Shown piece after piece: positions 2,817 through 57,248 of a stretch of 64,000 nucleotides of DNA. Numbering within the stretch: the first letter of the stretch is position 1; each line of letters starts with the position of its first letter. Source of the stretch: Candidatus Thorarchaeota archaeon (GTDB lineage: Archaea > Asgardarchaeota > Thorarchaeia > Thorarchaeales > Thorarchaeaceae); NCBI GenBank assembly GCA_004524445.1, contig SDNP01000009.1, positions 1-64,000 on the forward strand, written 5' to 3'. A program made the position numbers and the translations under genes. The notes beneath the pieces were generated by a model. The model was not told the origin of the DNA, did not search any database, and saw only the letters and a list, made by a program, of their open reading frames with translations.

Positions 2817-3323
2817 TTGCTATTATTGACACAAATAACTCCTATTGCCATCACAATTCTGCAACATCCTGAAGGATTTCTATTCATCAAAAGAAGAAAA
2901 GCTCCTTATGAGGGCTTGTGGGCACTTGTGGGTGGAAAAATTGCGATGGGCGAGCATATACCTTCTGCTGCGGAAAGAGAAGTCATGGAAGAAACATCCT
3001 CACAATCCCTTACGGATTATAGATTGCATGCCATTGTATCGGAGAGGTTGATTGATACCTACGGCTTGTTGAGCGGGCATTTCCTCATGTTTCTCGGAAG
3101 TGCAAAAATTCTTGATTTCAAGGATTCAAATAGGGAGGGTGATTTGGCCGTATTTACAATGGATGCAGTACGAGAGAACTCAGCCGCGTTTCTCCCCTCC
3201 GATCTAGAAATGTTTCAGCGGTTTGTATCACATGAAGACAAGGCGATTGAATATCACGAAGCAGAGCTAGTCTACACTGGCGGAGGTTATGACCTGAACT
3301 ACTACAGAGATGATATTCTGTGA
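2817..3323 (+). CDS. NUDIX hydrolase
   Basis: WALVGGKIAMGE...AAEREVMEET Nudix box. Confidence 0.88.
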   Translation: MLLLTQITPIAITILQHPEGFLFIKRRKAPYEGLWALVGGKIAMGEHIPSAAEREVMEETSSQSLTDYRLHAIVSERLIDTYGLLSGHFLMFLGSAKILDFKDSNREGDLAVFTMDAVRENSAAFLPSDLEMFQRFVSHEDKAIEYHEAELVYTGGGYDLNYYRDDIL

Positions 3324-39871: not shown

Positions 39872-39981
39872 AGCCCCGTGGTGTAGCGGTCCATCATGAG
39901 GGGTTCTGGTATCATTGAGCTCTTTTAGCTCTCAGATAGGAACTCCCCTTGACCCAGGTTCAAATCCTGGCGGGGCTACCA
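39872..39981 (+). tRNA. trnQ: tRNA-Gln(CUG) with 34-nt intron (39910-39943) at 37/38; CCA encoded
   Basis: AGCCCCG/CGGGGCT acceptor, AGGGG/CCCCT anticodon stem, CTG at 39906-39908, T-loop TTCAAAT; BHB: UUCU/AGGA helix with GGU and ACU bulges. Confidence 0.95.
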
Positions 39982-40110
39982 CTTTCCCCATGTCTGCACT
40001 CAGAAAAGATGCCCTCCGCGCGTCTGTCGTCTCTTTTCTTTTTTCGAATAATTTAACCTTTTTAGCGCAATACTATACATTTAAAGGGATTGATGACCAT
40101 TAATTAAAGA

Positions 40111-40195
40111 CGACAGTAGACCCGTAATTCAACGGTTTTCTGTTGCTTTGACTGGCGTCCCTCCCGGCGGCTATCAATGAATACGGGTCCTGTCG
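40111..40195 (+). ncRNA. Candidate three-way-junction sRNA with CCUCCC loop
   Basis: CGACAG/CTGTCG plus GACCCGTA/TACGGGTC closing stem, two inner hairpins, TTTAAA about 26 nt upstream. Confidence 0.55.
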
Positions 40196-40264
40196 AATTC
40201 CTATTCTCAGCAGGACAACCTTCATATCAATGTAGAGCCTCAATTACTATGGAAAGTATGCATC

Positions 40265-49453: not shown

Positions 49454-51100
49454 ATGGAAATAGAAAACGTTGAGCCAGTACCTGGCAAGGAGATTCATCA
49501 TGAGGATGGCGGTGATCTTTCCCGCTACCATGTTGAGAAACATGAGGTAAGAGAACTTCCTTACAATACTAAATCAATTTGTCCGGAGTGTCTCCTAGTG
49601 GATGATGAGGTTCATGTCATCGATGCCACTTTGTATGAAGAAGACGGCAAAGTAATGTATAAGAAAAAATGCGACAAGCATGGTAAATTCCTTGATATCT
49701 ATTGGGGCGATGCCGACATGTTTAGGACGGCACAGCAATGGTGGTATAAGACCGTTGGACTAGATAATCCCCGGACTGAAACAGTAGACGGATGTCCAAA
49801 TGATTGCGGACAATGCCCAGAACATAAATCGCATACAGCTCTTGCACTGCTGGACGTCACAAACAGGTGCAACCTTCGTTGCCCGATATGTTTTGCACAT
49901 GCAGCTGAGTCTGGAACTGTCTATGAACCGGAACCAGAAGAAGTTCTTGAAATGATGCGAAATCTTCGCAGCAATCTTCCTGTTCCAGCCCCGGCTCTAC
50001 AGTTTGCTGGGGGTGAACCAACTGTGTCCAAACATTTGCCCCAATATATCCGTTGGGCCAAGGAATTGGGCTTTAAACACGTGCAAATAGCCAGCAACGC
50101 AATCCGAATCGGAAAAAGCAAGCAGTATACCCAGGAGCTTCTTGATGCTGGTCTATCAACTATTTACATGCAGTTTGATGGTGTCACTCCTGAGCCATAC
50201 ATTGAAGCCCGGGGAACAAACCTTCTTCCCTTGAAGGAGCAAGCCATACAGAATTGTCGCGAAGTTGGACTGGATTCACTCGTACTTGTTCCGACCGTCG
50301 TACGTGGCGTCAACCACGATCAACTGGGTTCCATTATAGAATATGCTGTGGAGAATTATGATGTTATCCGTTGTGTCAATTTCCAGCCTGTGAGCATTAC
50401 TGGTCGTATTGATTATGATGCTAGAACCGACATGAGGATTACAATCCCCGATTGCATACATCTCATAGAGGAACAAACCAATGGTACGATTCCAGCCACA
50501 GAATGGTATCCTGTACCAGCTATGATGCCAGTGGGTAGAGCTCTTGGAATGATGAAGGGTACTCCTCAGTTAGAGCTTAGTGCACATTTTGCATGCGGGA
50601 TGTCTACATTTCTCTACATCAATGATGATGGTTCTTATGAACCCATCACGAACCTGATTGATGTGGACAAATTCATCCAGCTTCTTGAGGACATTGCTAA
50701 CCTTTATGCTGATGAGAAAATGGCCGCCAGCAAACGGGCGAAAGCCAAGTTAGCTGCGGGAATCAGACACATCAAGCGTAAGGGCATCATGAAAGACCTG
50801 TTGTCAGCTTTCCTGAGGCGGGGTGACTATAGCTCGCTTTCCAAGTTCATGGAACGCGTTATTATGATTGGCATGATGCACTTCCAGGATCCCTACAACT
50901 TCGACTTGGAACGAGTACAACACTGTGATATCAACTACTCTGTTCCTGATGGCAGAATTATCCCATTCTGCACAATGAACACTATCCACCGTTCGCGAGT
51001 TGAGAAGAAGTTCAGCATGCCAATAGAAGACTGGCGTGGAAGACACAAGCCTGACAAGGTTGAGGAAGAGAGCATTTCTAAACCCTACAAAGGCGATTAA
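49454..51100 (+). CDS. tes: Tetraether lipid synthase (radical SAM)
   Basis: TKSICPEC...C.KHG Zn domain, GCP.DCG.CPEH, CNLRCPIC, FQPVS, MHFQD.YNFD..R...C.I.Y..PDGRIIPFC. Confidence 0.9.
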   Translation: MEIENVEPVPGKEIHHEDGGDLSRYHVEKHEVRELPYNTKSICPECLLVDDEVHVIDATLYEEDGKVMYKKKCDKHGKFLDIYWGDADMFRTAQQWWYKTVGLDNPRTETVDGCPNDCGQCPEHKSHTALALLDVTNRCNLRCPICFAHAAESGTVYEPEPEEVLEMMRNLRSNLPVPAPALQFAGGEPTVSKHLPQYIRWAKELGFKHVQIASNAIRIGKSKQYTQELLDAGLSTIYMQFDGVTPEPYIEARGTNLLPLKEQAIQNCREVGLDSLVLVPTVVRGVNHDQLGSIIEYAVENYDVIRCVNFQPVSITGRIDYDARTDMRITIPDCIHLIEEQTNGTIPATEWYPVPAMMPVGRALGMMKGTPQLELSAHFACGMSTFLYINDDGSYEPITNLIDVDKFIQLLEDIANLYADEKMAASKRAKAKLAAGIRHIKRKGIMKDLLSAFLRRGDYSSLSKFMERVIMIGMMHFQDPYNFDLERVQHCDINYSVPDGRIIPFCTMNTIHRSRVEKKFSMPIEDWRGRHKPDKVEEESISKPYKGD

Positions 51101-51374
51101 TACATAGATTAGTGAGAGTCCGCTGAATTGCCCGGACCTCCTCACTTCTCTGTTTAATATTTTCATCTTTTATCTTTGGCAGGTTTAACCTGAGAATATG
51201 CCACGATATCTGGGTTTCTTAAAAATGAAATCTGGAGCCTTTTCTTTGTTGTTTTGTAAGAGATGGGAGGAAAAGAACTTAGATGCGCCCTAACATTAAA
51301 CCCAAGTTAAGTTTTTTAAAGCGTCTACGACCTCAAAGAAAACCTTAATAAGAAGTACCACAAACGTGAGAGTG

Positions 51375-51512
51375 TCGAGTGGTAGCCAATGAGGGAAACG
51401 GGGCTACGACTATGATGCAAACGAACATTGGCGGGTACGTGGGCTAGTTTTTCGTTACATGCCCTCAATTACGAAACTCCCCCCTCCTACCACGATTTCC
51501 CACGTCCCGCCA
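51375..51512 (+). ncRNA. Candidate switch-like structured RNA with mini-ORFs
   Basis: 14-bp GC stem TGGCGGG-T-ACGTGGG/CCCACGT-CCCGCCA; alternative pairings of the 5' arm; BRE-TATA-like gaaaaccttaata about 51338-51350. Confidence 0.55.
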
Positions 51513-51555
51513 CCTTCTTCTACACAGCATTATCTGACCAAGCGACGTCTTTAAA

Positions 51556-53628
51556 GTGGGTCTTTTTTTGTATATTCTGTTGGAGATACTCTGCTTGAAC
51601 GACCAGTTGCCCTATCTTGATGAAACGTTAAGCATTGAAGAGCGATTGCAAGACCTACTTTCTCGCTTGACCCTTAAGGAGAAATTCTCCCTTCTTAGCA
51701 GTCAAGGTCGCCACCGAATCTATGTCACAAAGGGAATAAAGCGGCTACAAATTCCCCCTTTCAAGGTGACTGATGGCCCGTTAGGGGTTGCACGACACTC
51801 AAGCTGGTTCAAGAAGAACACAAGATTTCCCGCCACAATCTCTTTAGCAGCCTCGTGGAATAGAGGTCTCGCGCATAGTGTTGGAACTGCAATGGGACAG
51901 GAAGTACGGGCATGTGGGCGGCATGCTCTCCTTGCACCAGGAATCAACATCCATAGAACTCCCCTCTGCGGAAGAACATTCGAATACTTCAGTGAAGACC
52001 CGTTTCTCACAAAGGAATTAGCTGTGCAATTTGTCAAAGGTGTACAGAGTCAGGAAATTGCTGCATGTGCAAAACACTATGCGGCGAACAATCAGGAAAT
52101 CGACCGAAAGACGATGAGTGCTGAGATAGATGAACGAACATTACATGAGATCTATCTCCGGGCATTCAGAGCATTGGCAAGAGACGCAGAAGTTTGGTCT
52201 TTCATGACTTGCTATAATATGGTAAATGGTGTCTATGGTGCAGAACATGAATACCTGATTAGAGATGTTCTGATTGACAAATGGGAATTTGATGGTATGG
52301 TCATGACTGACTGGTTAGCGACTGGCGGAATAGAGGATACAGGATCCTGCGTAGATGCAGGACTCACACTTGAGATGCCCTTCCCCGCAAAATACAAGGT
52401 AAGCTCTCTTGAGAAAGCCTTCGAAGAGGACAAGTTCACCGAGGATTCATTGAATGACTTAGTCATCAGAAATCTACGGACTATGATTCGAACAAGAGCA
52501 CTCGACCAGGATGAATTTGTACCTTCAGGAGCTCGAAATACACCCGAGCACCAGGATCTCGCACGACATGCAGCTGAAGAGGGAATGGTTCTACTAAAGA
52601 ACAAAGGAGATCTTCTTCCTCTGAACATTGAACATGTAGATCGCATTGCATTACTAGGGCCGAATCTAAAGAAGAAGTTTGGCAGGTTCCTTTATGGTGG
52701 ATCATCAGCAGTAGTCCCACCATATGAGATAACTCCACTTGAAGGAATGAAGAACAAGTGCGGCGATACGGTCAGAGTAGTCCACGATCCCGCTAAAGCT
52801 GATGTGGCTGTTCTCTTCATGGGCCTTGACCACAGCAGAGGCATGGACTCAGAAACTTACGATAGAAGCTCATTACACTTACCAGAGAAACAAATCGACC
52901 TAATTCTAGAAACCACGGCTCAGAATGAAAATACGATTGTCGTTTTAATTGCTGGAAGTCCCATCGCTATGGATCCATGGTTGGATGAGGTGTCCGCGGT
53001 TCTCAATGCATGGTATGCAGGAATGGAGGCGGGAACTGCCATCGCTAATATCCTCTTTGGAGATATCAACCCGTCTGGACGGCTACCAATCACATTTCCG
53101 AGGAATCTCTCTGATTCTCCAGCGCATCATTCAGGAGATCCTCGAAATTATCCTGGTGATAAAGAGAAAAAGGTATACTATGAAGAGGGCATTTTCGTTG
53201 GTTACCGGTGGTTTGACAAGAAGAGAATTGAACCGCTATTCCCATTCGGCTACGGGCTTTCGTACACCACATTTGATCTCGAATCAGTGAAAACCAAGCA
53301 GAATATCCTCGTTTCATCGGATGAAGATATAATCCTTGAATTGCAGTTGAGAAACACTGGGGCGACATCAGGTTCCGAGGTTATTCAAATTTACTCACGA
53401 GATTTGGATTCCTCTGTTGAGCGCCCCGTGAGGGAATTGGTCGGGTTTGAGAAGATATTCCTTAGACCAAATGAAGCCAAGCAAGTTTCTCTTAAGATCG
53501 GCGCTGAGGAGCTTGCCTTCTATGACACCAATATCCATGACTGGACAATAGAACCCGGGGATTTTATGCTGGAGATTGGACAATCTTCAAAACATATTCT
53601 GGCAAGGACCGAAATCAGCTATGGATAG
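51556..53628 (+). CDS. GH3 beta-glucosidase (start likely TTG about 51595)
   Basis: TDGPLG, GRTFEYFSEDP, KHYAANNQE, VMTDW, NPSGRLP, YEEG..VGYR, PFGYGLSYT. Confidence 0.95.
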   Translation: MGLFLYILLEILCLNDQLPYLDETLSIEERLQDLLSRLTLKEKFSLLSSQGRHRIYVTKGIKRLQIPPFKVTDGPLGVARHSSWFKKNTRFPATISLAASWNRGLAHSVGTAMGQEVRACGRHALLAPGINIHRTPLCGRTFEYFSEDPFLTKELAVQFVKGVQSQEIAACAKHYAANNQEIDRKTMSAEIDERTLHEIYLRAFRALARDAEVWSFMTCYNMVNGVYGAEHEYLIRDVLIDKWEFDGMVMTDWLATGGIEDTGSCVDAGLTLEMPFPAKYKVSSLEKAFEEDKFTEDSLNDLVIRNLRTMIRTRALDQDEFVPSGARNTPEHQDLARHAAEEGMVLLKNKGDLLPLNIEHVDRIALLGPNLKKKFGRFLYGGSSAVVPPYEITPLEGMKNKCGDTVRVVHDPAKADVAVLFMGLDHSRGMDSETYDRSSLHLPEKQIDLILETTAQNENTIVVLIAGSPIAMDPWLDEVSAVLNAWYAGMEAGTAIANILFGDINPSGRLPITFPRNLSDSPAHHSGDPRNYPGDKEKKVYYEEGIFVGYRWFDKKRIEPLFPFGYGLSYTTFDLESVKTKQNILVSSDEDIILELQLRNTGATSGSEVIQIYSRDLDSSVERPVRELVGFEKIFLRPNEAKQVSLKIGAEELAFYDTNIHDWTIEPGDFMLEIGQSSKHILARTEISYG

Positions 53629-56273: not shown

Positions 56274-57248
56274 ATGTTACCCATGCAATTCTTAATTAGC
56301 AGTGCTACCTTATTCTCGGCGAGTTGCGATAGAATGTTACGTAAGAACGAACTGAATTTCCTTCAAGTGGATGCTTTCACAGATACCCGTTTTGGGGGAA
56401 ATCCCGCTATTGTTGTGTTAGATGCTGACTCTCTTGATGATGAACAGATGTATATGATTGCAGAAGAGATGAGCTCACGGGAAACTGTCTTTGTTTGTAA
56501 ATCATCTGTCGCTGACTTCTGTTTTCGATTTCTCACGTCAAAGGGTGAAATTGACTTTTCAGGACATTCTGCAATTGCTGCCTTTCATGCACTAGTTGAG
56601 GAGGGCAAAGCAGAAGTGGTATACGATGTGACAATGCTCTCATTGGAAACCAAATCTGGGGTTCTGCAGGTTGAGATCGTGAAGAATGAAACCACCCGCA
56701 CCCATGAAGTCCAAATAACTCATTCACGACCCGAGTTCATGAACACTTATGATACTAAAGCATATGCGGAGGCGCTCGGACTCAATCTTGTCGATATAAT
56801 GTCTTTGTATCCTATACAGACAGTGAGTACTGGGACTCCTCATTTGGTTATCCCATTGATGAGTCTTGATGCCTTAGAACGGGTCAAACCGAACTTGGAT
56901 TTGATTGAGAGTTTATCCGCTGATGGTGACTATGACTCAATCATTGCATTCACGAAAGAAACGCATGAAGTAACTTCTGATGCGCATCTCAAACACTTTG
57001 CTCCTGCGCTTGGTGTTGCCGAAGAGCCGGCATCGGGGGTTGCTTCAGGATGTTTGGGAAGCTATCTTATTCGGCATGGTATTATTGACTCTACAAATCG
57101 TGTTTCAACTATTGTTCTAGAGCAAGGATACCATCTGGGCCGTCCAAGTAAGGTGATAGTGGAAGTAATCGGAGATAGAGAGGGAATCGAACAAGTCAAA
57201 GTGAGCGGCACAGCAGTCACTGTGATGAAAGGTGAAATATACATCTAG
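56274..57248 (+). CDS. PhzF family isomerase/epimerase
   Basis: VDAFT...FGGNPA, ETVF, EIDFSGH, STG, EQG..LGRPS. Confidence 0.9.
   Translation: MLPMQFLISSATLFSASCDRMLRKNELNFLQVDAFTDTRFGGNPAIVVLDADSLDDEQMYMIAEEMSSRETVFVCKSSVADFCFRFLTSKGEIDFSGHSAIAAFHALVEEGKAEVVYDVTMLSLETKSGVLQVEIVKNETTRTHEVQITHSRPEFMNTYDTKAYAEALGLNLVDIMSLYPIQTVSTGTPHLVIPLMSLDALERVKPNLDLIESLSADGDYDSIIAFTKETHEVTSDAHLKHFAPALGVAEEPASGVASGCLGSYLIRHGIIDSTNRVSTIVLEQGYHLGRPSKVIVEVIGDREGIEQVKVSGTAVTVMKGEIYI

Follow-up and report, generated by a model that had tools for sequence, protein, structure and literature searches.

Y RNAs are 80–110 nt long, have their ends paired in a long stem around a pyrimidine-rich loop and occur as several paralogues. 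Bacteria have multi-copy C-rich small RNAs (sRNAs) that bind Shine–Dalgarno (SD) regions (PMC8079631, PMC4615179). The LhrC siblings of Listeria (LhrC1-5, Rli22 and Rli33-1; PMC8079631) are ~100-nt RNAs with two stem-loops, including an intrinsic terminator, and conserved unpaired C-rich motifs that can bind AG-rich SD regions, and the cuckoo RNAs of Alphaproteobacteria (RSs0680/CcsR and SmelC397; PMC4615179) consist of 2–4 adjacent hairpins with CCUCCUCCC in each. Relaxed BHB introns, for which we use the motif definition of PMC6379350, occur in archaeal tRNA, rRNA and pre-mRNA. Almost nothing is catalogued on the small RNAs of Asgard archaea.

Here we analyze an RNA locus in a 64,000-nt stretch of Candidatus Thorarchaeota archaeon DNA, the window. 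The thorarchaeal RNA is like the Y RNAs in size, end-paired long stem, pyrimidine-rich loop and number of paralogues; unlike them it lacks a conserved bulged-C Ro site and an Rfam match, and no Ro60/TROVE gene occurs in the 41 family genomes searched (0/41, with a positive control found in Deinococcus). With LhrC it shares a length of ~100 nt, several homologous copies and unpaired C-rich motifs that could pair SD regions, but it has one closing stem and an ACC tail where LhrC has stem-loop and terminator, and it differs further in its archaeal TATA promoter, BHB introns, antisense leader and lack of sequence relation; its mRNA targets are putative. With the cuckoo RNAs it shares variable compensated stems, a conserved anti-SD-like loop and several copies per genome, but its single closing stem around one large loop, its motif CCUCCUACC and its ~50 invariant bases place it outside that group. 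Searches of Rfam 15 gave no window match at the gathering threshold and none credible at E≤10, and for five other loci returned neighboring tRNAs only; a literature search of partial coverage found no description of the family. The thorarchaeal RNA is uncatalogued and is placed near the C-rich sibling small RNAs as a member of no known family.

Anatomy of the locus

The RNA locus is the 450-bp gap between the tetraether lipid synthase gene (tes) and a GH3 glycosidase gene. The tes gene marks the orthologous locus and precedes 36 class I copies of the RNA (classes are defined below), to which its only demonstrated link is one of position. The usual downstream neighbor at tes loci is a PhzF-family gene, which in the window lies at 56274-57248. 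The features are as follows.

49454..51100, + strand: upstream neighbor, tetraether lipid synthase Tes (NF045702, 632 bits against a cut-off of 450)
51338..51351, + strand: BRE-like purine run and TATA box, the latter CTTAATAA at 51344-51
51374..51429, + strand: 5′ leader, with the start predicted at G51374 from TATA spacing
51389..51447, + strand: two overlapping mini-ORFs, present, not conserved and outside the functional element
51430..51443, + strand: closing stem, 5′ arm, with covariation; probable 5′ end of the mature RNA
51444..51476, + strand: core part 1, comprising a U-run, the inner hairpin UUUCGU/ACGAAA and the loop motif ACAUGCCCUCA (51457-67)
51477..51494, + strand: core part 2, the C-rich motif CUC6-UCCUACCACG with CCUCCU at 51483-88, predicted unpaired
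51499..51511, + strand: closing stem, 3′ arm, with covariation
51512..51521, + strand: ACC tail and, behind it, a pyrimidine tract; probably the 3′ end or a trailer
51556..53628, + strand: downstream neighbor, GH3 glycosidase (Pfam PF00933/PF01915), a lineage-specific insertion

A sequence-only reading had proposed a BRE/TATA-like site, a 5′ hairpin and a long stem enclosing the inner hairpin, and each of these is present. The BRE/TATA site, whose TATA box lies 30 nt before the predicted start, is conserved in orthologues although the rest of their leaders cannot be aligned. The 5′ hairpin of GUAGCC (51382-87) with GGCUAC (51402-07) is part of a leader hairpin (51374-87/51402-17); UGGUAG (51380-85) in its 5′ arm and UGAGGG (51390-95) in its loop read as a degenerate antisense of the core. 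The stem 51429-43/51499-512 has 13 bp with one bulged U plus the pair U51429-A51512, and encloses UUUCGU (51450-55), CCCUCA (51462-67) and ACGAAA (51471-76). Core part 1 shows little or no variation in alignments A1 and A2; core part 2 is the most universal element, with columns invariant in both alignments, and is retained in a class IV sibling that has no core part 1. Of 106 copies, 90 have ACC directly after the stem and 84 have U as the next base; behind the tail of the window copy a U7 run lies at 51563-69.

Fold, covariation and transcription

The segment 51430-51516 (+) folds with a z-score of −4.59 (0/200 shuffles as good), compared with −1.66 for the minus strand, and the leader reaches −2.98 in a shuffle test. 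Across 45 homologues the closing stem is paired in 97.6% of alignment cells, and both-sided changes occur in 12 of its 14 pairs (0/500 shuffles, far above slid controls), with many G-U pairs that point to the + strand as the sense strand; in classes II/III the figure is 11 of 13 pairs. The inner hairpin is invariant, so covariation speaks neither for nor against it, and a pseudoknot or kissing geometry is likewise beyond demonstration by covariation because the core does not vary. Near-invariance of the ~50-nt core extends across 16 genera, the only variables within it being the spacer between the two motifs and the length of the C-run (5–9).

The core is on record in 11 RNA runs, and in RNA libraries from four studies it lies on short contigs of 141–184 nt, one of them 100% identical over 51431-51529; as contigs, these matches carry no ends, strand or level and their uncovered flanks are uninformative, so they give a weak hint of transcription.

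Known types of element were compared and set aside. A tRNA or tRNA-like RNA was rejected on the grounds that ARAGORN does not call the locus, the fourth tail base is A in only 3 of 106 copies, and a cloverleaf, T-arm or CCA end is absent; a replacement for SRP RNA or RNase P RNA, because both canonical genes are present elsewhere in the genome; and a peptide encoded by the core or its minus strand, because synonymous sites are invariant, indels are not in threes and the wobble falls on the + strand.

We are highly confident that the locus is a real, stand-alone RNA gene. Comparison shows a module of ~82–95 nt, composed of a paired variable stem, a near-invariant C-rich core and an ACC tail under its own TATA box, that is inherited at several fixed loci independently of the downstream gene.

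Distribution and classes

BLAST with 51430-51519 found the RNA in 35 of 36 family genomes and one sister-family genome, at 1–13 places per genome. A two-motif pattern extends this to 75 of 76 Thorarchaeota-family genomes, with ~220 other Asgard genomes at control level only, and a covariance model agrees. Outside Thorarchaeota the family was not found in the genomes searched, where the few pattern hits fold without the closing stem. Core matches titled 'Promethearchaeota/Hermodarchaeota' were discounted because the sequences are identical or similar to loci of the family (L052 = L019). The sequence-only reading had offered an independent ncRNA as its second option, and the homologue search at several loci, the covarying stem and the individual TATA box all bear this out. 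Presence in practically every Thorarchaeota genome and rRNA-like conservation of the core suggest that the RNA does something basic, and the family supplies a ready marker sequence for Thorarchaeota.

Homologues fall into four classes. Class I copies follow tes, with a PhzF-family gene as the usual next neighbor; class II copies adjoin a histidine kinase or an unknown gene, and class III copies OsmC; class IV retains only the C-rich motif of the core. The source genome (G000) holds three close copies, namely the window copy, C6:72980-73070 and C63:31050-31145, and looser ones on C12 and C43. The C12 copy (3057-3142, −) is a class IV sibling which, as in L359-L370, has the closing stem, ACC tail and C-rich motif with one additional A and lacks motif 1; that on C43 (813-897, −), a candidate RNA of 85 nt with a TATA box and a GC clamp, matches both motifs more loosely.

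The core of the window copy recurs in leaderless siblings, which have the TATA box 29–31 nt before the first G of the stem in 26 of 28 and a Y-G initiator in 25 of 28. This placement of the TATA box, 30 nt before the stem G with a pyrimidine-G initiator, indicates that in classes II/III the stem-core module is the complete transcript, to which class I adds a leader of 18–65 nt. A class I subgroup without a TATA box follows, at a distance of 5–13 nt, the stop codon of a gene of ~200 aa with no Pfam match (L172:1509-1591, L179, L230, L235, L318, L325-L327 and L334), and from this position these copies are probably cut out of the 3′ UTR, at the base of the stem.

Further copies vary in arrangement. 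In L029 and L155 the RNA gene occurs twice in tandem at a spacing of ~350 nt, and both members of each pair have a TATA box of their own. A genus-specific 18-nt hairpin that is not BHB-like is inserted between the two core motifs in L206 and L343, showing that the motifs are separable. In the sister-family genome G037, the RNA converges on an RNase Z-like MBL-fold gene (L170:3104-3859, −) across an 18-nt gap, probably by coincidence.

BHB-type introns in homologues

Eight homologues contain inserts of 30–31 nt at several core positions, five of them with BHB inserts in core part 1; the window copy is intron-free. The 4-bp central helix of the BHB motif is complete in seven of the eight inserts and 3/4 in the other (null 0.7% each). 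All seven BHB-type inserts have an A-A/A-C bulge, and their excision in silico restores the core exactly, which suggests a transcribed RNA whose core must be exact. The inserts resemble archaeal relaxed BHB introns in length, central helix, 3-nt bulge spacing and intron hairpin (PMC6379350), but the host here is neither tRNA, rRNA nor mRNA, and splicing is predicted from sequence; the exon-side outer helix of the strict motif has 0 bp in the five inserts scored, leaving a relaxed motif only. Tying tRNA-type introns to an RNA of this kind would extend the set of RNAs on which the splicing endonuclease acts.

Several related inserts were seen. One L155 copy combines a BHB intron with a second hairpin insert. 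The 16S gene of the source genome (C9:96950-97060, L244) carries two similar inserts of ~30 nt towards its 3′ end, one of them immediately preceding the anti-SD. The window carries a tRNA-Gln(CUG) with an intron at 39872-39981 (+), and ~30-nt introns occur in many tRNAs of the source genome, which also has a tRNA-Sec on C49.

Proposed leader–core pairing

The sequence-only reading had proposed that the 5′ arm could instead pair through GUGGUAG (51379-85) and GAGGG (51391-95) with 51482-93. These segments are present, and the antisense tendency recurs across unrelated leaders; the alternative itself fares less well, being 11 kcal/mol worse than the main fold at full length. We compared leader–core complementarity with that of leader shuffles in 24 non-redundant leaders (<62% identity). 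The mean duplex z-score is −1.75, with 13 leaders below −1.64 and the window leader at −2.7, whereas the two controls, the sequence preceding the TATA box and a reversed core, give 0.14 (2/24) and −0.06 (1/24), respectively; the leaders share ancestry, so these z-scores are not independent. An alignment-score version of the test agrees. The best-kept leader word, UGGURGG (46% identity), has an A and a G at its variable position that both pair with core U, and some leaders (L029, L155 and L154) correspond collinearly, in degenerate form, to the antisense of the entire core. Leaders are therefore antisense-like beyond composition, which indicates that the core has a natural G-rich pairing partner.

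The leader–core fold is predicted to be the most stable as long as the 3′ arm has yet to be transcribed; in the nested full-length model the main fold then prevails, and leader–core pairing with the closing stem kept would be a pseudoknot. The predicted leader-motif duplex (−22.3) and the leader hairpin (−15.6) are comparable in energy. The 24 leaders match the antisense of the core in degenerate form, so that in the precursor the core is probably masked by the leader, and we lean slightly towards a functional pairing of this kind. Many copies have no leader, and the complementarity could be a relic of local inverted duplication of the core, an event seen once (L335). A leader antisense to the active loop offers a testable built-in switch.

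Proposed function and alternatives

The best explanation, to which we give a probability of roughly 0.45, is a stand-alone multi-copy small RNA that pairs G-rich ribosome-binding sites in trans. The window copy would be transcribed from G51374 with a 56-nt leader that would pair the core during transcription and afterwards balance between its own hairpin and the core, masking the latter. Trimming at the stem base would then yield the mature module that leaderless siblings produce without such a step, and the freed C-rich strands CCUCCU and CCCUCA would pair G-rich Shine–Dalgarno-type sites of mRNAs and damp their translation, in the manner of the LhrC and cuckoo RNAs. The source genome uses SD sites (AGGAG 106 versus 17; ~41% versus 11%), and the core holds their exact complement, CCUCCU, predicted unpaired.

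Target searches gave no specific mRNA above controls. Pairing energy of the core motifs with start regions equals that of the anti-SD, but, unlike the true anti-SD, the motifs do no better than their shuffled or reversed versions, and an apparent TGCCCTCA excess proved an artefact of the reversed control, explained by Markov expectation. Against 16S, 23S, SRP and RNase P RNA the core finds only G-U-rich matches of 8–13 nt unshared between genomes, the shared exception being an 8–9-nt UGGUAGGG site in 16S that is at chance level; for the tRNA D-loop the best duplex is weaker than those of shuffles. Against an sRNA role stand the ~50 invariant bases, ACC tail and intron invasion, which exceed the needs of a 6–9-nt seed.

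These same features are better explained by a protein-binding housekeeping RNA, an RNP scaffold or decoy with tRNA-like maturation that would be cut at the stem G and behind the unpaired A, and whose core would bind a protein or ribosome factor and possibly mimic the 16S 3′ end. It draws further on the near-invariance of the core across 16 genera, the G-start stem with A-C-C tail in 90 of 106 copies, BHB introns otherwise typical of tRNA and rRNA (PMC6379350), the processing that TATA-less copies behind a stop codon need, the recurrence of UCGUAACA, CCUCCU and CACCU in the 16S tail (short, and perhaps chance) and the lack of an mRNA target above controls. However, no partner gene travels along (neighbors are Tes/PhzF, OsmC, a histidine kinase and unknowns), Ro60 is not found, the tail is not CCA although tRNA genes of the source genome encode CCA, C-run and spacer vary, and antisense-like leaders point to base pairing. 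We rank this tentative explanation close behind the ribosome-binding-site sRNA. A further reading, a lineage-wide Asgard housekeeping class with tRNA-like processing and intron invasion whose core is held off by the antisense leader until cut and then acts on the ribosome or a translation factor and not on single mRNAs, is rather unlikely.

A trans-acting ligand sensor or ribozyme, in which the core folds a pocket and the leader is an on/off strand, is improbable: an invariant core enclosed by a stem free to vary is typical of aptamers, and leader hairpin and leader–core duplex are similar in predicted strength, but no Rfam riboswitch or ribozyme matches even at E 10, the core is mostly unpaired and C-rich, and neither an expression platform nor a constant downstream gene is present.

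The sequence-only reading had put first a translation-coupled attenuator or riboswitch for the GH3 gene, built on two coupled mini-ORFs, and the homologues leave this very little room. The mini-ORFs MRETGLRL and MMQTNIGGYVG translate as described, each to a stop, and overlap by ATGA, but are no more than expected by chance: the coupled pair occurs in 1 of 55 long leaders, the first ORF is frameshifted in a genome of the same genus, and recurrence of the second reflects only the stem sequence, which reads GGYVG-stop. RNA and GH3 gene do lie on the same strand, and the alternative fold exists and is favored in nascent RNA. Yet GH3 lies downstream in only two genomes (G000 and G001) among 30 loci, and on these two counts we reject the proposal; moreover, in 33 of 103 copies the downstream gene lies convergent to the RNA on the other strand, neither a terminator hairpin nor SD sequestration is seen in the module, a TATA-like TTTAAAG of GH3's own lies at 51550-56, and siblings without a leader have the same core. 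A mobile element or MITE-like transposon-end remnant in place of an RNA gene, which the sequence-only reading had raised against itself, matches the 1–13 dispersed copies per genome with terminal inverted arms but is largely refuted by arms that vary with G-U wobble on one strand around an invariant interior, synteny fixed at three loci across genera, individual TATA boxes, and the absence of a transposase neighbor or of copies in viral contigs.

A second, distinct conserved small RNA lies in the window at 40110-40200 (+) and is found by BLAST in 16 of 40 family genomes. Missed by the models of the main family, it nevertheless has the same design, with a TATA box 30 nt upstream, a varying paired closing stem, a mostly A-C tail and an invariant hairpin with the loop CCCUCCC.
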